Positions 3,802 to 63,349 of a stretch of 64,000 nucleotides of DNA are shown piece by piece. The notes under the pieces were generated by a model. That model saw only the letters and a list, made by a program, of their open reading frames with translations. It ran no database searches and had not been told where the DNA came from. Positions within the stretch are counted from its first letter, which is position 1. Every line of letters begins with the position of its first letter. The stretch comes from a virus. Taxonomy: Duplodnaviria; Caudoviricetes. Location of the stretch: positions 184,192 through 248,191 of IMG/VR virus record IMGVR_UViG_3300032307_000764; one strand, 5' to 3'. The position numbers and the translations under genes were made by a program.

Positions 3802-3954
3802 ATGTTCATAATACTCTTTATCATCTTATCATTCTTTACCTTGATATCAATAGGAGCAGCTTATGCAATTAAAGAAAGAAAAATGACTATTACAGCAATC
3901 ATTATATCCTCAGTCTGGATCCTTTCTTTATATTTAATCTTATATTTGAGGTAA
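3802..3954 (+). CDS. 50-aa two-TM membrane peptide (not in ORF track)
   Basis: MFIILFIILSFFTLISIGAAYAIKERKMTITAIIISSVWILSLYLILYLR*. Confidence 0.65.
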   Translation: MFIILFIILSFFTLISIGAAYAIKERKMTITAIIISSVWILSLYLILYLR

Positions 3955-4020
3955 GCTTTAGTTCATAGAAGCAGTAATAAATTATCACTAAATCCCAAGA
4001 GCAATCTTGGGATTTTTTTT

Positions 4021-4067
4021 GTGCTGAAGTTTTCTGGTAGCAGCCACAGGAATTCTGGAGGAACCCC
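4021..4067 (+). repeat. Extended junction repeat, copy 3
   Basis: See 877-925. Confidence 0.9.
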
Positions 4068-4216
4068 CGCTGGAAAACCCCTAAAACCCCTAAAGTCCCT
4101 CTCGGAAAAAAGTTTGAATTATTTCCAAGAAATTCCAAGAATCATTTTTTATATCGAGTAGAAGTTTCTATATTAGCTATGTTAATCAATTAAACAAAAC
4201 CAAAAAACAAAACATT

Positions 4217-4531
4217 ATGAAAACTTTAACAGCAGAACAAAAAGCAAAAAAGGCAGCTTATGACAAAGCTTACAGAGCAAAGAAAAAAGCTCAAACTCAA
4301 ATGGAAGCTTTCAAAATCCCAAGCGAAGACAAATTCGAAAAAAGCTTTGACTATCCGGTTCGACTTTACAAAAACTTGAAAATGGAGAAAACAAATTCTT
4401 ACTGTGCAGCAGCAGGAGCACTCTTAAGCTTTGTTAAAATCAAAAACGAAAACAACCAAATCGTTTTCAGAGTTAAAAGAACTGGTCGCAGAACTTTCTA
4501 TACAACTTCAAATGAACTTATCCAAAAATAA
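4217..4531 (+). CDS. Hypothetical basic protein (K/A-rich N-terminus, possibly nucleic-acid binding)
   Basis: KAKKAAYDKAYRAKKKA; ORF after promoter. Confidence 0.8.
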   Translation: MKTLTAEQKAKKAAYDKAYRAKKKAQTQMEAFKIPSEDKFEKSFDYPVRLYKNLKMEKTNSYCAAAGALLSFVKIKNENNQIVFRVKRTGRRTFYTTSNELIQK

Positions 4532-4550
4532 GAGCATCCAAAAAACAAAT

Positions 4551-4574
4551 GAGGAGACTTCGGTCTCCTTTTTT
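4551..4574 (+). terminator. Intrinsic terminator (UUCG loop)
   Basis: GGAGAC-TTCG-GTCTCC plus T-tract. Confidence 0.85.
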
Positions 4575-4686
4575 GTGACCTAAGGTTTTGCAAAAGACGT
4601 ATGCATGTAAGACGAGGGAACCTCCGAGACTTTAAGCAGCTCTAGCAAAAACTGATACATCTATCAAAAACTGATAATACATAGCT

Positions 4687-4711
4687 TTACCATAAGCTCC
4701 TGAGGAACCCC
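4687..4711 (+). repeat. 25-nt repeat TTACCATAAGCTCCTGAGGAACCCC (second junction subfamily)
   Basis: Identical copy at 7363-7387; partial copy at 7004-7026. Confidence 0.9.
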
Positions 4712-4747
4712 AGCCATTTTACTGGAGATCTTACCAGGAGTTTTTGA

Positions 4748-4815
4748 TCCTTTTCTATCCTACTTCTACCTCTTTTCTACTCTTCTTCTACAACTCCTCT
4801 ACTCTTCTTCTAATC
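4748..4815 (+). repeat. Pyrimidine-rich low-complexity tract (TTCTAC-like units)
   Basis: No G on the + strand over about 65 nt. Confidence 0.7.
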
Positions 4816-4909
4816 ACCTGAGGAACCCCAGGAACCCTAGCATTTTCTATTTGGGAATCATTTTTTTATTTGTGGAAAATTCTATACATTTATAACAAAT
4901 AAAACAAAG

Positions 4910-5101
4910 ATGAATAACTACGCTAAACTAGTTTCACCAGACGGAGAAATCGTAGGAGTACTTGAACTTGAGGCAGGAACTTTAAACGAGACCCTCGTTG
5001 TTGAAGCAGCTCTTGAATTGGGTATTAAATTAGAAGCATGCACTGAGGAAGAGTACAACAATTTTGATGGTGATGAAATCAAACCAAGTTGGATGGAATA
5101 A
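4910..5101 (+). CDS. Hypothetical acidic protein
   Basis: ORF after promoter. Confidence 0.75.
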   Translation: MNNYAKLVSPDGEIVGVLELEAGTLNETLVVEAALELGIKLEACTEEEYNNFDGDEIKPSWME

Positions 5102-57388: not shown

Positions 57389-59320
57389 TTATTTTATTTT
57401 AGCTATCTTCTCCACTATAGTGTTTCCGTTCTCAGTAGTTAGAGTTACGAAATATAATCCCGATTGTAATTTACCAAGATCAGTATAGTATGAGAATTGT
57501 CCTTCTGGTACTTGACCAGTTAATATTGTAGCTAGCTTTCTTCCTTGTAAATCTGATACGTATAAAGTAGCATCAGCAGTTTCTGCTAGACTAAATGTTA
57601 TTGTTACGTCCTCTTCGAATGGATTAGGATATACGAGCATAGAGTTTGCATCTATTATTTGTCCGTTAGATATCTTTAATACTTGTAGTATTCCATTTGT
57701 TGGAGTTAATGTTAAGTCTTTGGAATTAGATGCACTACCAGCAAATTTTCTAGTAGTATATAAAGGACTCTCGTCCCATTCATTTTGTGGCTGTAGTGCT
57801 ACGAATTGTAGAGTTACCACATCATCACCATCTTTAATAGAATTTGTGTTATTGGTTACATCGTAACCACCCCAATCTATTTCGCCTCCATTTGCATTAA
57901 TATAAGTTAACCATTTCATTGCAGAAGATGAAGAATAAACTCCTTTGAATGAAAGTATAGTATCGTTATATTTTAATCCAAATTGTAGAGAGCTAAGATC
58001 AATACCATTGGTTAATACTTTAACCGGTATGTTTACTAAATTGCCCTCCTGTACTGAGATGTGAGGAACGTTAACTTCTATCGAAGATGTAGGGAAATCA
58101 TATTCTACTTTAGTATCAATTACGTTGTAGATCTGACTTTCTAATCCTGGTGCAGGGCCAACTAATACCTCGATTGGAGTTACACGAGCCATATTGTAAC
58201 CTGTACCATTAGCATCCCCTGGTACAACTACGTAGTAAACTACAGAATCAGGTTGTCCTGGTAATATATCAAATGTAAAGTTAGTTGCTCCTGATATTGA
58301 TGATGTATAGTTAGTTGCAGATCCGTTGATTGTGTTATATTCGGATTCCGTGAAGAATTTAACATCTTTAGTATTGTTAGGCCATACTGAGAATCTTCCA
58401 GATATTCTACCAAATACCCCATATGCGTCAGTAATAGTTACATTATCAGATTCATTGACATCTGCTGCATAATAATCAAATCCTGACATTGTACCGTTAC
58501 CTAATACCCATTGATTAATTAATTGAGCATCAGCAGTTGAAATAACGTTACCTACTGTCATTGAATCTCCTTGTACTGCTAATCTCACGTCCCAATAAGT
58601 TGTATCTAAGGGTACAGATATAGCAAAGTCACCGTTTATATCGGTAATATAAGTTGAATGTTGTGACCAGGTGCTACCTCCCAAAGGTCTTGTTTCTAAA
58701 GCTAATGTTAAGTTTTTAGCTGGCGTACCAGTTACATTTGTAAATGTTCCATGATAGTCAAAGTTCTGGAATATGAAGTTACCACCATAACTATGTAAGT
58801 TTAAAGTTGTATCTGCGCCTTCCTGTGTAGCTGCGTATTGTTGGAATGTATTAGCTGCTGGAACAACTGACCAAGCTAAAGGCGTGATTGTTACTAAGTT
58901 GTTAAATACAGATGAAGCAGCGTGAGTAAAAGTAATCTCAAATCTTTCACCATCTGGTAACGTATAAGTTGCACTAGATCCAGTGTAAACTAGTGTCATG
59001 GTGATATAACCATTAGCAGCATTAGTTATGTACTGGAAATCTAAGTTTGTTGGAGATCCTAGAAGAGATACAGTAGCATTGGTGAATGCTATTTTATCAT
59101 AGAATACTCTGAATTGAATACCTGTATATTTTGTAAGCGTAGTATTTTTAGAAGTAATTTTTGCAGTAGTAATTCCCTGTGCAGTTGTACCTACTGTGTA
59201 ATTTGTGTCAATAATTGCCCAGATTCCTGTTGAAGGAGCGGGTGGCCCGCTTTGTGAAAATAAGTCGAGAGTTAGCGTCATAAAAAACGTTAGAACGCTC
59301 AACATTCTTAATGTCCTCAT
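57389..59320 (-). CDS. T9SS cargo with cohesin-like and dockerin-like domains
   Basis: Signal peptide; AADVNESDNVTITD; cohesin VNIPV..SLQFGLKYN; CTD VYPNPF...DLQGR...SGLYFV. Confidence 0.85.
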   Translation of the reverse strand: MRTLRMLSVLTFFMTLTLDLFSQSGPPAPSTGIWAIIDTNYTVGTTAQGITTAKITSKNTTLTKYTGIQFRVFYDKIAFTNATVSLLGSPTNLDFQYITNAANGYITMTLVYTGSSATYTLPDGERFEITFTHAASSVFNNLVTITPLAWSVVPAANTFQQYAATQEGADTTLNLHSYGGNFIFQNFDYHGTFTNVTGTPAKNLTLALETRPLGGSTWSQHSTYITDINGDFAISVPLDTTYWDVRLAVQGDSMTVGNVISTADAQLINQWVLGNGTMSGFDYYAADVNESDNVTITDAYGVFGRISGRFSVWPNNTKDVKFFTESEYNTINGSATNYTSSISGATNFTFDILPGQPDSVVYYVVVPGDANGTGYNMARVTPIEVLVGPAPGLESQIYNVIDTKVEYDFPTSSIEVNVPHISVQEGNLVNIPVKVLTNGIDLSSLQFGLKYNDTILSFKGVYSSSSAMKWLTYINANGGEIDWGGYDVTNNTNSIKDGDDVVTLQFVALQPQNEWDESPLYTTRKFAGSASNSKDLTLTPTNGILQVLKISNGQIIDANSMLVYPNPFEEDVTITFSLAETADATLYVSDLQGRKLATILTGQVPEGQFSYYTDLGKLQSGLYFVTLTTENGNTIVEKIAKIK

Positions 59321-59425
59321 TTTTTTTAGTTATTTAATTGGTTGTCTATCTATATATTTTTAGATGAGAAAAAAATGGGAACTTCCTGATAAAAAATTAA
59401 AAAATAGTTTAATCTATTTAAAATT

Positions 59426-59508
59426 AAAAAAGGGCCAAGGTGGTTGCGAATTCCTTGACCCTTAGATGATACTTTCGTAACATCACGGTCCTAAGCCGTG
59501 TAAAGTGG
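59426..59508. ncRNA. Candidate structured RNA or attenuator upstream of the T9SS operon
   Basis: Three hairpins; CTTAG/CTAAG pseudoknot potential; on the minus strand a GAAA tetraloop and a final hairpin plus U-tract. Confidence 0.5.
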
Positions 59509-59557
59509 AAATTTTTAGATCTTTTTATCTATAATAATAATACTATTTATCTAAATC

Positions 59558-59734
59558 ATGGAAGAAAATGTAAGAATTCAGCACGACAGAAAGCTAGAAG
59601 GGGAAAGACTTGAATTATTTGAGCTTTTTAGAAAAAAATATCCGAAAGGTAAAGAGGAGAGCCAGATGAATATGTGTTTACAAGTATCGGATGAAAGGAT
59701 AGCGGTATATAAAGAAATATTTACAGCTAAATAA
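59558..59734 (+). CDS. 58-aa hypothetical protein (not in ORF track)
   Basis: MEENVRIQHDRKLEG...IFTAK*. Confidence 0.6.
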   Translation: MEENVRIQHDRKLEGERLELFELFRKKYPKGKEESQMNMCLQVSDERIAVYKEIFTAK

Positions 59735-59786
59735 TGCTGTAGAAATTTCTTTTTTTTTATTAAATATAAATTTCTACATTTGCCAT

Positions 59787-60038
59787 ATGAAAAAATCTTT
59801 GTTAATATTATCTTTGATTTCTCTATTCTTTACATCTTGTTTAGAAATAAAAAAGAAAGAAGAAATTATAAAATGCGTAGTTACATCTTGTGAAGAAATA
59901 GAGGCTAGTTCTGTACACGAGGAAATGAATAGACCTCTTGGGTATAGATTAGAAACATCTTGTGGAAGATCTTTTAGAACTAAGATTAAGTACCAATCCG
60001 GAGATACTATAGAAGTTACCAAAGTTAGCTATCAATAG
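59787..60038 (+). CDS. Putative lipoprotein
   Basis: LFFTSC lipobox; TACATTTG upstream. Confidence 0.75.
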   Translation: MKKSLLILSLISLFFTSCLEIKKKEEIIKCVVTSCEEIEASSVHEEMNRPLGYRLETSCGRSFRTKIKYQSGDTIEVTKVSYQ

Positions 60039-60080
60039 TTTTATCCTAAAAAGGGAATATATAATGAAAAATATATTCCT

Positions 60081-60914
60081 ATGTTACTTAAAAATGGATC
60101 TAAGGGAGAAGATGTAAAAAAACTCCAAGAAAAATTGGGCCTTACCGCAGATGGTTCTTTCGGTCCTGGCACAGAAACAAAAGTTAAAGAATGGCAAGCA
60201 GCTAATGGACTAAAAGCCGACGGTATTGTTGGAGCCGGTACTTGGGCTAAGATGTTTGGTTCAGCACCAGTAGCAGCAGCTCCTGCATCAGCACCAGTTT
60301 CTATACCACCTTCAGCTTTCAAGCTAGAAAATTTAAAGGGACATATTCCTGATGCAGTTCTTGCACAGATCCCAGATACAGCAGCTAAATTTAATATCAC
60401 TAACACATTAAGACTTGCACACTTCTTAGCACAGTGTGGCCACGAATCTGGTGGTTTTAAAGCTGTTTCAGAAAATCTTAACTACTCTGCTGATGGCCTT
60501 AAAAAGATCTTCCCTAAATATTTCCCAGGAAATCTTAATGAGTCTTATGCAAGACAACCAGAGAAAATTGCTTCTAGAGTTTATGGAAGTAGAATGGGTA
60601 ACGGCGACGAAGCTTCTAAAGAAGGATTCAAATTTAGAGGTAGAGGTTATATCCAATTAACTGGTAAATCTAACTATGCTTCTTTCGATAAATTCGTAGA
60701 CGATGATATACTAGGAAATCCTGATCTAGTTGCTACTAAATACCCTTTAATGTCTGCAGCATTCTTCTTCAATAACAATAGCTTATGGTCAATTTGTGAC
60801 AGAGGAGCGGACGATGCTACAGTTACAGCAGTAACGAAAAGAGTAAACGGGGGAACTATTGGATTACCTGATAGAATCAAGCACTTTAAGGAGTATTATT
60901 CTTTATTAAAATAA
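60081..60914 (+). CDS. Endolysin: PG-binding domain plus GH19 chitinase/lysozyme-like domain
   Basis: GSKGEDVKKLQ..LG..ADG.FG..T; RLAHFLAQCGHESGG; FRGRGYIQLTGKSNY; TKRVNGG. Confidence 0.92.
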   Translation: MLLKNGSKGEDVKKLQEKLGLTADGSFGPGTETKVKEWQAANGLKADGIVGAGTWAKMFGSAPVAAAPASAPVSIPPSAFKLENLKGHIPDAVLAQIPDTAAKFNITNTLRLAHFLAQCGHESGGFKAVSENLNYSADGLKKIFPKYFPGNLNESYARQPEKIASRVYGSRMGNGDEASKEGFKFRGRGYIQLTGKSNYASFDKFVDDDILGNPDLVATKYPLMSAAFFFNNNSLWSICDRGADDATVTAVTKRVNGGTIGLPDRIKHFKEYYSLLK

Positions 60915-60922
60915 AAAAAGAT

Positions 60923-61444
60923 ATGAAAAAATATAATCTAGACCCGCTACATTCTGATGTAGCATTCAGAATAAAGCATTTGATGATATCGAATGTTAAT
61001 GGATTCTTCGGAAAATTTGACGCAACTATGGAATCTAGTAGTGAAGATTTCTCTGATGCTAAAATCTGGTTTCAGACTGAAGTTAATTCAATTTCAACAA
61101 ATATTACTGACAGAGATAACCATTTAAAGTCCCCAGATTTCTTTGACGTTGAAAACTTCCCACACTTAACTTTTGAATCTTCTAGTATAGAAAAAGAAGA
61201 TAATGGTTATTTAATCAAAGGTAATCTAACAATCAAGGGAGTATCCAGAGAAGTAACTATAAAAGGTAACTATAATGGTAACGACGTTGACGCATACGGG
61301 CAAACTAAATACGGGTTTGAACTAGAGGGTGTTATCAGTAGAAAAGACTGGGGTTTAACATTTAACTTAGAGGGTGGTAAAGGATCGCTTTTAATAGGAG
61401 ATGAGGTTAAACTTATGGCTAATATACAAATGTTAGAGGCGTGA
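60923..61444 (+). CDS. yceI: YceI family protein
   Basis: DPLHSDVAFRIKHLMIS.V.G.F...RDNHLKSPDFFDVENFP...GNLTIKGVS. Confidence 0.92.
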   Translation: MKKYNLDPLHSDVAFRIKHLMISNVNGFFGKFDATMESSSEDFSDAKIWFQTEVNSISTNITDRDNHLKSPDFFDVENFPHLTFESSSIEKEDNGYLIKGNLTIKGVSREVTIKGNYNGNDVDAYGQTKYGFELEGVISRKDWGLTFNLEGGKGSLLIGDEVKLMANIQMLEA

Positions 61445-62325
61445 TAATATCAACAAAAAGCAAAATAGCATTAGGGTTTGCTGGATTTTATATGCTGGTA
61501 TTCTTTATCGTTAAGACTTTTACCCTATTTGGCATATTTGAGCAGTGCTGGGCAACTAACTGGATTGAGTACGGATGTTTTATCCTATTCTGTCCTCCTG
61601 CATTTTGGTTTGTTAGAGACTTCTTAAGAGAGAAAGAGAAAATTCACCAATCAACCGTTGATCAGCTTCAATATAAAAATACCTATTTAGAGCATGCAGC
61701 TAAGATACTTAGACATGATATGCACTCAGGTATTAATGTTTACATACCTAGAGGGATTAGTTCATTAGAAAGAAGGATACCACCTGATGCTATAGAAAAG
61801 TATAATTTAGCATCTCCACTAAAACTACTTAAAGAGGGACTAACTCATACACAGAAAGTCTATAAAGGTGTATATGAATTTACAAACCTGGTAAAGCAGG
61901 GTAGTTCTTTAGAATTCAAAGATATTAAACTCGATGAATGCTTAAGGAATTATCTAGAAACTACATCATATAAGGATCAGGTTATTATTGACGTTCTTCC
62001 GACTGTAAAAATAAACGAATCCTTATTTTGTACTGCCATAGATAATTTAATAAGAAATGGTCTTAAATATAATGATTCAGAAAATAAGCTGGTAATTATC
62101 TATATGCTAGATAACGAAACTCTTGTTGTACAGGATAACGGTAGAGGCTTAACTAACGATGAATTAATAGAATACTCTAAAAAAAATAAAAGGAGAGAAA
62201 ACCAAAAGGAAGAGGGAAGTGGCCTTGGACTTGGAATTTGTATAGCAATAATAAAAGAACATCATTTCGACGTCTATGCTGAAAAAATACCACAAGGAAC
62301 ACAAATAAAAATTAAATTAAAATGA
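61441..62325 (+). CDS. Membrane sensor histidine kinase
   Basis: Two TM; H-box ILRHDMHSG; N-box DNLIRNGLKY; G1 QDNGRG; G2 GSGLGL. Confidence 0.88.
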   Translation: MIISTKSKIALGFAGFYMLVFFIVKTFTLFGIFEQCWATNWIEYGCFILFCPPAFWFVRDFLREKEKIHQSTVDQLQYKNTYLEHAAKILRHDMHSGINVYIPRGISSLERRIPPDAIEKYNLASPLKLLKEGLTHTQKVYKGVYEFTNLVKQGSSLEFKDIKLDECLRNYLETTSYKDQVIIDVLPTVKINESLFCTAIDNLIRNGLKYNDSENKLVIIYMLDNETLVVQDNGRGLTNDELIEYSKKNKRRENQKEEGSGLGLGICIAIIKEHHFDVYAEKIPQGTQIKIKLK

Positions 62326-62759
62326 TTAATTCAATAATGTTAATAGATGATGAAAATCTTTTTCATCTTGTTTTTGAAGACGCTTGTAGTCTTCTCGATA
62401 TAGCTCTTTCGTTCGAAGCTCTTTCTTCATCGGATGAAGCAGATAAACTTTTCAAAAAATGGTTTCCAGACGATCCGCATAACGAAAAACCTGATTGTGT
62501 TTTTGTAGATCTTAATATAGTAGGATCCTCTTTCGATGGTATCGAAATGATACGTAAAATTAATTTCGATTACGGCGATGGAGTTGTAGTAGGTATTATA
62601 TCATCTTCATCAGATGTTCAAGAGATAGACAAAGCAAAATCCGTAGGAGCTCAATTCTGGATTATTAAATCTGATGAAATTGAGCCTAGATTAGAGGAAT
62701 TTAAAAAAGACTACGAAGGATATCGAACTAAAAATGCTCCTTTTAAAATTTATAAGTAA
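62322..62759 (+). CDS. Single-domain response regulator (receiver)
   Basis: MLIDDE...VFVDLN...DGIE...ISSS...WIIKS. Confidence 0.88.
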   Translation: MINSIMLIDDENLFHLVFEDACSLLDIALSFEALSSSDEADKLFKKWFPDDPHNEKPDCVFVDLNIVGSSFDGIEMIRKINFDYGDGVVVGIISSSSDVQEIDKAKSVGAQFWIIKSDEIEPRLEEFKKDYEGYRTKNAPFKIYK

Positions 62760-63349
62760 TGATAGTAGACAAATCCACCAGAGATTTTTTAATTAAAGCT
62801 TTTAAGGATAATAAAATATCTCTGGAGGGAAATATATTAAAAATTATCGAGGCAGATCCAAATGATCTAGAATTTAACGAGTATATAAAAAGCTCAATAG
62901 AGAAGGATAAATCATCTAGGAGAAGGAGACTTGAAATCACGAAACAGGTCCAGAATCAGAATAAAGAACTTCTTGTATCACAGGAAGAAAATCAGAAGTT
63001 AATGAATGATTTAAAGAACGCTTTATTTCTGGCAGAAAACTCAAAAAATGAGGCTATGGAAGCTATGAAAAAAGCTGAAACAGCTAAAGAAATCGCATTA
63101 GGAGATCTTGATGTATTACAAAAAAAATCTCAAACAGAGTTAATCGGTACTATAGTCAAAGTTGCACTGTATGTAATTATTGGGGTGGGTGTTACCACTA
63201 CTGTTATGTATGGTATAGCTATAGCTTCAAATAAAGATACCCAAATTATAGGATCTACCTGGGCAAATATGTTTGGTATATTACTAACAAATGCTTTCTC
63301 CATAGTTGGTACTATAATGGGTGTAAAATACGCATCAGAAAATAAATAG
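62759..63349 (+). CDS. Coiled-coil protein with C-terminal two-TM holin-like segment
   Basis: RRRRLEITKQVQNQNKEL coiled coil; two TM helices at the C-terminus. Confidence 0.7.
   Translation: MIVDKSTRDFLIKAFKDNKISLEGNILKIIEADPNDLEFNEYIKSSIEKDKSSRRRRLEITKQVQNQNKELLVSQEENQKLMNDLKNALFLAENSKNEAMEAMKKAETAKEIALGDLDVLQKKSQTELIGTIVKVALYVIIGVGVTTTVMYGIAIASNKDTQIIGSTWANMFGILLTNAFSIVGTIMGVKYASENK

Follow-up and report, generated by a model that had tools for sequence, protein, structure and literature searches.

Gene content of the locus

The DNA analysed here, referred to as the window, comprises the last 64 kb (64,000 nucleotides, positions 184,192 to 248,191) of the single 248,191-bp viral record IMGVR_UViG_3300032307_000764, which is estimated to be 85% complete. 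Close to its 3' end lies a compact gene cluster encoding, in this order, a lipoprotein, an endolysin with PG_binding_1 and GH19 domains, a YceI-like protein, a histidine kinase (HK), a receiver-only regulator (RR) and a 196-aa protein, hereafter P5, composed of a coiled coil and a transmembrane (TM) hairpin. Phage helicase, Thg1, sigma-factor and structural genes are present in the record, whose owner is an uncultured freshwater T4-type jumbo phage of the virulent type. The endolysin, HK, RR and P5 genes occur there in one copy each, and the endolysin is the sole lysin or PG_binding_1 gene of the 248 kb. The five genes of main interest are as follows.

60081..60914, plus strand: endolysin, PG_binding_1 domain and GH19 muramidase/chitinase fold
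60923..61444, plus strand: YceI, lipid/isoprenoid-binding YceI-like protein (PF04264, 4e-44, residues 4-169)
61441..62325, plus strand: histidine kinase of the intramembrane-sensing type, 2 TM, intact core of dimerisation/phosphotransfer (DHp) and catalytic (CA) domains, H92
62322..62759, plus strand: stand-alone receiver of 145 aa, a single-domain response regulator with phospho-acceptor D63
62759..63349, plus strand: P5, 196 aa, N-domain (1-~60), coiled-coil helix and TM hairpin (~127-194)

All five open reading frames (ORFs) of the initial annotation were confirmed at these positions. The endolysin and YceI genes are separated by 8 nt, and the overlapping stop and start codons reported for the following genes could be read directly as GTGA (YceI/HK), ATGA (HK/RR) and TAATG (RR/P5). 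The annotation had described a complete kinase and receiver pair placed between an endolysin and a membrane protein; the gene set is indeed as described and its catalytic motifs are intact.

The endolysin is matched by PG_binding_1 (PF01471, 7e-14), Glyco_hydro_19 (PF00182, 2e-8) and the endolysin family phrog_181 (2e-64). The GH19 Glu-x8-Glu pair is found at E122/E131, within GHESGGFKAVSEN, so that the enzyme, annotated earlier as a GH19 endolysin, combines the catalytic glutamates and the cell-wall-binding domain of this type. Its sequence contains neither a signal peptide nor a signal-arrest-release sequence, and the protein is predicted to be cytoplasmic. The assignment of YceI is likewise secured by its Pfam match; no signal peptide was found in its sequence, in contrast to secreted YceI proteins.

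In the kinase, TM1 (about residues 8-32) and TM2 (about 41-58) are joined by the loop EQCWATNW (~8 aa), and the DHp domain follows directly. Two TM segments, a very short loop and the absence of a sensor domain place it with the intramembrane-sensing kinases of the LiaS/BceS type. HATPase_c is matched at 6e-12, HisKA went undetected by Pfam, and the boxes announced by the annotation are all in place: the H-box RHDMH at 91 (H92), the N-box DNLIRNGLKYND at 201, the G1 box DNGRG at 232 and the G2 box GSGLGLG at 259. Across 13 homologues of phage and cellular origin, their core residues (R-H-D, DNL..NGL.YND, DNG.G, GLGL) do not vary. The regulator matches PF00072 alone, with 31.3 bits for a cut-off of 30.2, and displays the acidic pocket D9 and D10 together with D63, S94 and K116, which bears out its description as receiver-only. 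Of 13 sequences compared, all share D10, D63, S94 and K116 and 12 have D9, a residue without exception in the 8 close phage homologues. No part of the module is better conserved than the receiver (84% mean column identity among phage homologues), whose profile finds its nearest solved relatives in the stand-alone Rcp1/RcpA regulators, Spo0F and CheY. Both the kinase boxes and the receiver pocket by which two-component systems are recognized are thus present.

No family was found for P5 in Pfam (E<=0.1), PHROG, NCBIfam or PADLOC. Its AlphaFold2 model (predicted local distance difference test score, pLDDT, 87) displays a small N-domain, one helix extending from residue 37 to residue 156 into TM1, and TM2 at 162-194, in agreement with the earlier reading of a coiled-coil protein with two C-terminal TM helices. 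Fold searches with this model against the PDB and BFVD returned as their only match an uncharacterised homologue from an uncultured phage, the P5 profile gave only coiled-coil noise against PDB sequences, and a search of the protein atlas gave only viral clusters, whose automatic name is uninformative.

Conservation of the module

The IMG/VR contigs matched numbered 12 with the kinase, 8 with P5 and >548 with the P5 profile. The same profile gave >7000 hits in a metagenome protein collection, on contigs of up to ~350 kb, and a tblastn search of the kinase against the INPHARED phages returned no match. A threshold of 75% identity divided 112 loci into 27 viral P5 lineages, to which all lineage counts given below refer. 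The synteny survey proposed with the initial annotation found HK, RR and P5 in that order, tightly packed, in nearly all of the 27 lineages. Since many diverged phage contigs carry this gene set, the arrangement is far from what chance would produce. Two loci, L040 and L063, depart from this rule, P5 being present with an intact N-domain and neither kinase nor receiver upstream. In the second, a 177-kb record estimated to be 74% complete, no receiver was detected in the whole record and the genes standing in for HK and RR upstream of P5 have no Pfam match.

The kinase core is kept among lineages and its sensor part is swapped, the observed forms being 2 TM only, PAS, and TM+GAF+PAS; in several lineages the kinases are soluble. 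Loci L009, L010, L045, L047, L093, L103 and L104 carry two different kinase genes before a single RR and P5, an arrangement suggesting that one output integrates several inputs.

Domain exchanges in P5

Alignment of P5 proteins reveals a conserved N-domain, a coiled coil of variable length (with a 27-residue indel) and a nearly invariant TM hairpin, the most conserved part of the protein. TM2 exposes an invariant small/polar face (T177, S181, G184, G188), as would be expected for helix packing or pore lining.

P5 proteins were surveyed as representatives at 50% identity (252 clusters), among which two contrasting types of variant are conspicuous. In P0141, a GAF domain replaces the N-domain in front of the coiled coil and hairpin; in P0165 and P0170, one or two PAS domains do so. 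The loci of these sensor-fused, one-component variants are devoid of HK and RR. Conversely, P0253, P0246, P0268 and P0270 consist of the P5 N-domain and coiled coil followed by HisKA and HATPase_c, and the model of such a kinase-fused relative (HK2) displays one helix extending from residue 37 into the H-box helix. Since the N-domain can be exchanged with classical sensor domains, we take it as the input of the protein, and since the hairpin can be exchanged with a kinase core, we take the hairpin as the output. The N-domain itself constitutes a new, unannotated family. In the metagenome protein P0188, a FecCD-type ABC permease takes the place of the hairpin and is joined to the P5 N-domain and coiled coil; this could be a real fusion or an assembly chimera.

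These exchanges bear on the initial proposal that the receiver acts on the cytoplasmic coiled coil of P5. The comparative evidence favors P5 as the signalling output, and this part of the proposal stands. The variable coiled coil as such is not retained as the docking site: the conserved N-domain and the start of the helix, which are shared with the cellular kinase that follows the same receiver, are likelier. The phosphorylated receiver probably docks on the N-domain, a proposal made because RR is the only other component common to the phage and cellular settings and is always encoded just upstream. A complex prediction of RR with P5(1-125), both chains being supplied as alignments, scored 0.51, with 0.49 for one unrelated control, and was not used either way.

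Cellular relatives

The kinase-fused forms are located in cellular-type contigs of ~41% GC, versus ~34% in the phage, each of them behind a homologous HK and RR. One of these contigs is part of a freshwater Bacteroidetes metagenome-assembled genome and contains CreD, HAD, AP-endonuclease and type IX secretion system genes, and the contigs of loci L022, L023 and L024 are probably from Bacteroidota. The gene order in these three is [YceI]-HK1-RR-HK2, with an AraC-type protein next in one of them. Phage and cellular proteins are 69% identical for YceI, 62% for HK (over the full length, including the 2-TM part), 66% for RR and 45-49% for the N-domain, in which E23/G24, F39, Y42, D50, R54, R57, L58, T61, K62, Q65, N68 and L71 are invariant on both sides. 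This cellular cascade is undescribed, and the P5-type N-domain in the sensor place of HK2 suggests a receiver-activated kinase. The phage module looks like a captured version of the cascade in which the second kinase core was replaced by a membrane effector.

The YceI protein of the window has its 69% identical counterpart directly before the homologous cellular kinase, and it is found in only some of the 27 lineages. It is read here as an optional accessory inherited from the cellular ancestor along with the kinase. The idea of YceI as a lysis-specific sensor was dropped because the protein accompanies the cellular ancestor and is missing from most lineages.

Linkage to lysis genes

A lysin was defined as a peptidoglycan hydrolase or PG_binding_1 protein, with a distance limit of 2.5 kb from the module. 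Such a gene is found within this limit in 17 of the 27 lineages, whereas a 2.3-kb module would by chance lie that close in ~3% of cases if a genome of 248 kb has one lysin. Lysin and module are arranged in at least six different orders among the lineages:

lysin-YceI-HK-RR-P5, as in this window
lysin-x-2TM-HK-RR-P5
lysin on the opposite strand, divergent, the kinase lying 51-74 bp away
HK-RR-P5-small TM gene-lysin, spaced by 4-23 nt (L090, L104, L098)
HK-RR-P5-...-orf-lipoprotein-lysin (L037, L043, L057)
holin-like-lysin-HK-RR-P5 (L035)

The catalytic domains of these adjacent lysins are GH19, Amidase_2, GH46 or of no known type, and the flanking genes other than lysins differ between lineages. 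The one-component P5 variants are located among a 2-TM holin-like gene, spanin-like genes and lysins. For example, locus L020 contains a lipoprotein and a GAF-P5, then a 78-aa 2-TM protein followed by an N-TM/coiled-coil protein, and finally another lipoprotein ahead of a GH19 lysin and a glucosaminidase; the cassette of L021 resembles it. This neighbourhood was kept through many rearrangements and domain swaps, which argues for a functional tie between the module and the lysis genes. The linkage in 17 of 27 lineages and the position of the one-component variants inside lysis cassettes support the part of the initial reading that ties the circuit to lysis genes.

The start of the endolysin gene is preceded by a hairpin.

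60054..60079, plus strand: 9-bp hairpin GGAATATAT...ATATATTCC, 3' arm ending 1 nt before the endolysin ATG

This structure folds at -10.7 kcal/mol (z -2.0), and its 5' arm contains a one-mismatch copy of GATATATA, a motif with 19 copies in the window for 6.7 expected, mostly positioned 5-25 nt before starts. In L037, L043 and L057 the endolysin is also preceded by motif and hairpin, with compensatory changes in the stem (GGAATATAT/ATATATTCC, AGAGATATA/TATATCTCT, GGGATATA/TATATCCC); other relatives hold a GATATATA-type motif before the endolysin and no hairpin. In phage T4, the start of gene e is masked by a hairpin that late transcripts bypass. The endolysin hairpin looks like this temporal translation switch, and the resemblance of the motif-in-hairpin to the gene e arrangement suggests late expression of the endolysin and of the overlapping genes downstream.

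P5 as a possible holin or holin regulator

With the class II holins or pinholins, such as S68 of phage 21, P5 shares a two-TM hairpin, a predicted N-in/C-in topology, a small/polar face on TM2 and a lysis-cassette position beside a cytoplasmic endolysin, found in 17 of the 27 lineages. It differs from them by its size of 196 aa, with ~125 cytoplasmic residues before the hairpin, by a short tail of ~7 residues and by the absence of sequence similarity, and also in that, in many relatives, the classical holin position belongs to a small 2-TM gene distinct from P5. This position is filled by a 2-TM family of 73-120 aa, located in several lineages between P5 and the lysin or elsewhere inside the cluster. 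The family is characterized by the motif DEKG.PSSKR...LV.AVA.LAFG.LGL.S.DK and provides an unannotated holin candidate for the relatives. The other small 2-TM family of these clusters is a conserved 62-aa 2-TM protein, which has no family match, always lies directly before a 2-TM kinase, 21-24 bp upstream, and may be a co-sensor. The slot directly 5' of the 2-TM kinases is occupied either by this protein or, as in the window, by YceI, an arrangement compatible with sensing through an accessory protein.

2-TM DEKG family: L090 5247-5489; L104 8591-8959; L002 7891-8112; L020 6955-7191; L035, L036, L110
62-aa 2-TM protein (...VGVWTKFCPSKW.FEK.G.KKSEL): L014 4491-4679; L052, L054, L061, L068, L090 and many others

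P5 is encoded directly 5' of a small 2-TM holin-like gene and a lysin in L090-92, L104, L098 and L020. In relatives of this kind, P5 looks like a regulator of the 2-TM protein, comparable to an antiholin. A hidden Markov model search of the 85%-complete genome of the window found neither of the two small 2-TM families, and a search for the T4 holin T family (PF11031) found none either. P5 could be the holin itself in this genome, because it is the sole TM protein of the cluster other than the kinase; alternatively, the holin is encoded elsewhere in the genome or in the missing 15%. The holin-like label given to P5 at first has to be widened to a possible holin regulator in view of the separate 2-TM gene of the relatives.

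Proposed mechanism and alternatives

The observations above are best accommodated by a signal-gated timing of lysis, in which a phage-borne phosphorelay would control the membrane effector of the lysis cassette, P5 being a holin or a holin regulator. We put the probability of this reading at roughly 0.55. The mechanism can be briefly summarized as follows. The operon would be read late, along with the endolysin. The sensor-less 2-TM kinase, probably helped by the lipid-binding YceI, would read a membrane or metabolic signal, a role taken by PAS or GAF sensors in other lineages, and would phosphorylate the receiver-only regulator. The phosphorylated receiver would then dock on the small N-terminal domain of P5, and the signal would pass along the uninterrupted helix of the coiled coil to reach the TM hairpin, which is nearly invariant. 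The hairpin would either form a membrane lesion that frees the cytoplasmic endolysin, or promote or block a separate small holin. The whole would descend from the [YceI]-HK1-RR-HK2 cascade of Bacteroidota, the phage having swapped the kinase core for the hairpin. In this scheme, gene content, intact motifs, the conservation of HK-RR-P5, the exchanges of domains, the lysin linkage and the predicted fold are observed, and we infer the phosphotransfer, the docking of RR on P5, the action at the membrane and the direction in which lysis timing is moved. A more specific version adds that kinase and receiver act from protein to protein on a new effector family through a receiver-sensing N-domain, that swappable sensors (2-TM+YceI, PAS, GAF, two kinases or direct fusion) tie bursting to differing cues, and that the same N-domain defines a receiver-activated kinase cascade in Bacteroidota; for this version taken together, our estimate falls just short of even odds.

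A number of points weigh against lysis timing. Ten of the 27 lineages have no lysin in the flanking sequence available, three of these ten having truncated flanks, and the 17 lineages with a lysin are not independent events because they are related. In L063, the only PG_binding_1 gene lies ~70 kb from P5, PG_binding_1 being the sole lysin marker searched there. P5 need not be the holin, since in many relatives a distinct holin-like 2-TM gene separates P5 from the lysin; it is also larger than typical holins, with a short and charged tail, and T4-type phages often scatter their lysis genes, so that the holin could lie elsewhere. Finally, the late-promoter-like role of GATATATA is a putative assignment made only from motif enrichment and position.

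The same ten lineages lend themselves to the view that P5 is a gated membrane effector that serves some end other than lysis, such as superinfection exclusion, controlled depolarisation for host takeover, counter-defence or an abortive switch, and that its proximity to lysins reflects a shared late envelope neighbourhood. A caspase-like peptidase with an N-terminal TM helix is encoded directly after P5 in L029, and the contigs of L030 and P0156 have glycosyltransferases, a zeta-toxin-like kinase and leucine-rich-repeat proteins as neighbours, which would fit such a purpose. However, at least six rearrangements and swaps of its catalytic domain have left the lysin next to the module, holin-like, spanin-like and lysin genes surround the one-component variants, and PADLOC returned no match. 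We regard this explanation as unlikely.

Distinctly unlikely in our estimate is a role of P5 as an accessory, anchor or decoy, the true target being a host HK1-RR-HK2-AraC pathway rewired by the phage receiver, with the N-domain titrating the receiver of host or phage. The close homology to the cellular cascade (62-69% for YceI, HK and RR, 45-49% for the N-domain) would agree with such interference, and intramembrane-sensing kinases depend on accessory membrane proteins, as known for LiaS/LiaF and BceS/BceAB. However, the GAF or PAS variants with coiled coil and hairpin exist without any HK or RR, which makes the hairpin an endpoint and not a helper, and no part of P5 is better conserved than the hairpin. 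A membrane partner is moreover unneeded in the several lineages in which the kinases are soluble. That the module is a mere passenger (moron) of host origin, playing no part in the phage cycle, is very improbable: it does have clear cellular homologues, but all catalytic motifs are intact across hundreds of diverged phage contigs, the output domain is phage-specific, sensors are swapped, translational coupling is tight, and neither decay nor sporadic presence among close relatives was seen.

Comparison with known systems

In T4 lysis inhibition, the antiholins RI and RIII act on the holin T at the membrane or in the cytoplasm. The likeness to a signal-gated lysis module is that a T4-type phage adjusts the timing of lysis to a sensed signal and that the endolysin start is masked by a hairpin. 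The path in the window is nevertheless made of a kinase and a receiver with swappable PAS/GAF/TM sensors, whereas that of T4 relies on direct periplasmic binding of an antiholin; no homologue of T is found in the window genome, and P5 has no Pfam or PHROG family. The pairing of T with RI in lysis inhibition is documented in PMC11413866.

The LytSR-LrgAB/CidAB systems of Staphylococcus and Bacillus, in which a two-component system tied to the membrane state controls holin/antiholin-like membrane proteins (PMC4830213), resemble the module in this respect. LytR, however, is a cellular protein that binds DNA and acts on transcription, whereas the receiver of the window is phage-borne and has no output domain, so that control must be exerted from protein to protein. 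The module does not belong to the LytTR or LrgA-CidA types, its receiver lacking an output domain and P5 lacking a Pfam match (E<=0.1).

Single-domain regulators acting on proteins include CheY on FliM, DivK on the DivJ/PleC/DivL kinases, and Rcp1/RcpA. The nearest solved relatives of the window RR are found in this group, and the cellular succession of RR and HK2 follows a DivK-like logic. The difference resides in the target, a motor or a kinase in these cases and, in the phage, the proposed TM hairpin with an unannotated N-domain.

Sensors used in phage communication, such as the AgrC-type kinase of phiCDHM1, VqmA of VP882 and arbitrium, are likewise carried by a phage and inform a life-cycle decision. 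They act on the transcription of lysis-lysogeny genes, and phiCDHM1 is devoid of a cognate regulator and dedicated effector, whereas the window contains a complete kinase-receiver-effector chain in the lysis cassette of a virulent-type jumbo phage. Phage quorum sensing is reviewed in PMC7790227. A survey of jumbo phages (PMC7824862) describes only a divergent receiver, never linked to kinases, and no description of a phage-encoded two-component system tied to lysis was found in the literature searched. None of the systems compared joins a complete phage kinase-receiver pair with a dedicated membrane output in a lysis cassette. Two-component signalling and regulated lysis are the known kinds involved, here relying on two domains without annotation.

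Other features of the region

Two further genes precede the endolysin.

59558..59734, plus strand: small ORF, 58 aa, 5' of the lipoprotein gene
59787..60038, plus strand: lipoprotein, 83 aa, signal peptide and lipobox LFFTSC, directly 5' of the endolysin

In L037, L043 and L057, homologues of the lipoprotein are likewise encoded directly 5' of the endolysin; in L046, the homologue comes after P5. It is a possible outer-membrane lysis protein of the o-spanin type. The lipoprotein, the spanin-like genes and the small 2-TM neighbours have no family in PADLOC, NCBIfam, Pfam or PHROGs. The 58-aa ORF has no Pfam match, and a 64-aa look-alike, recognized by eye and without alignment, precedes the lipoprotein-endolysin pair in L037. 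Further upstream, a GC-rich non-coding stretch between divergent operons (59425-59512) displays three hairpins (-23.3 kcal/mol, z -2.0); neither Rfam nor tRNA scans, run over the non-coding positions 59300-59800, gave a match.

On the 3' side, the ORF following P5 (63354-64000) remains open past the contig junction, and its remainder lies at genome positions 1-~1300. It contains long collagen-like GAQGAQGAAGSSGTSG repeats and a fibre-like C-terminus, and would measure 654 aa if the ends were joined; the contig break probably falls inside the GAQGAQGAAGSSGTSG repeat. The repeats and the C-terminus argue for a fibre protein over a stand-alone pore-forming toxin. In L029, the Peptidase_C14 gene with an N-terminal TM helix (3952-4917) overlaps the end of a divergent P5; next come genes for a 118-aa 2-TM protein and a GH46 enzyme.

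Biological significance

Lysis timing is a central trait of phage fitness and, to our knowledge, T-even lysis inhibition is the only well-understood control of lysis that depends on a signal. If the proposed mechanism is correct, lysis cassettes of abundant freshwater jumbo phages would contain a sensor-relay-effector chain, and these phages would compute their burst time from sensed cues by phosphorylation, without transcription. A new receiver-binding input domain and a signal-gated membrane hairpin would become available as possible parts for synthetic biology. The model is directly testable, since it involves three small proteins and the endolysin. The module also documents how phages would rewire a captured bacterial cascade through the exchange of the output domain alone.

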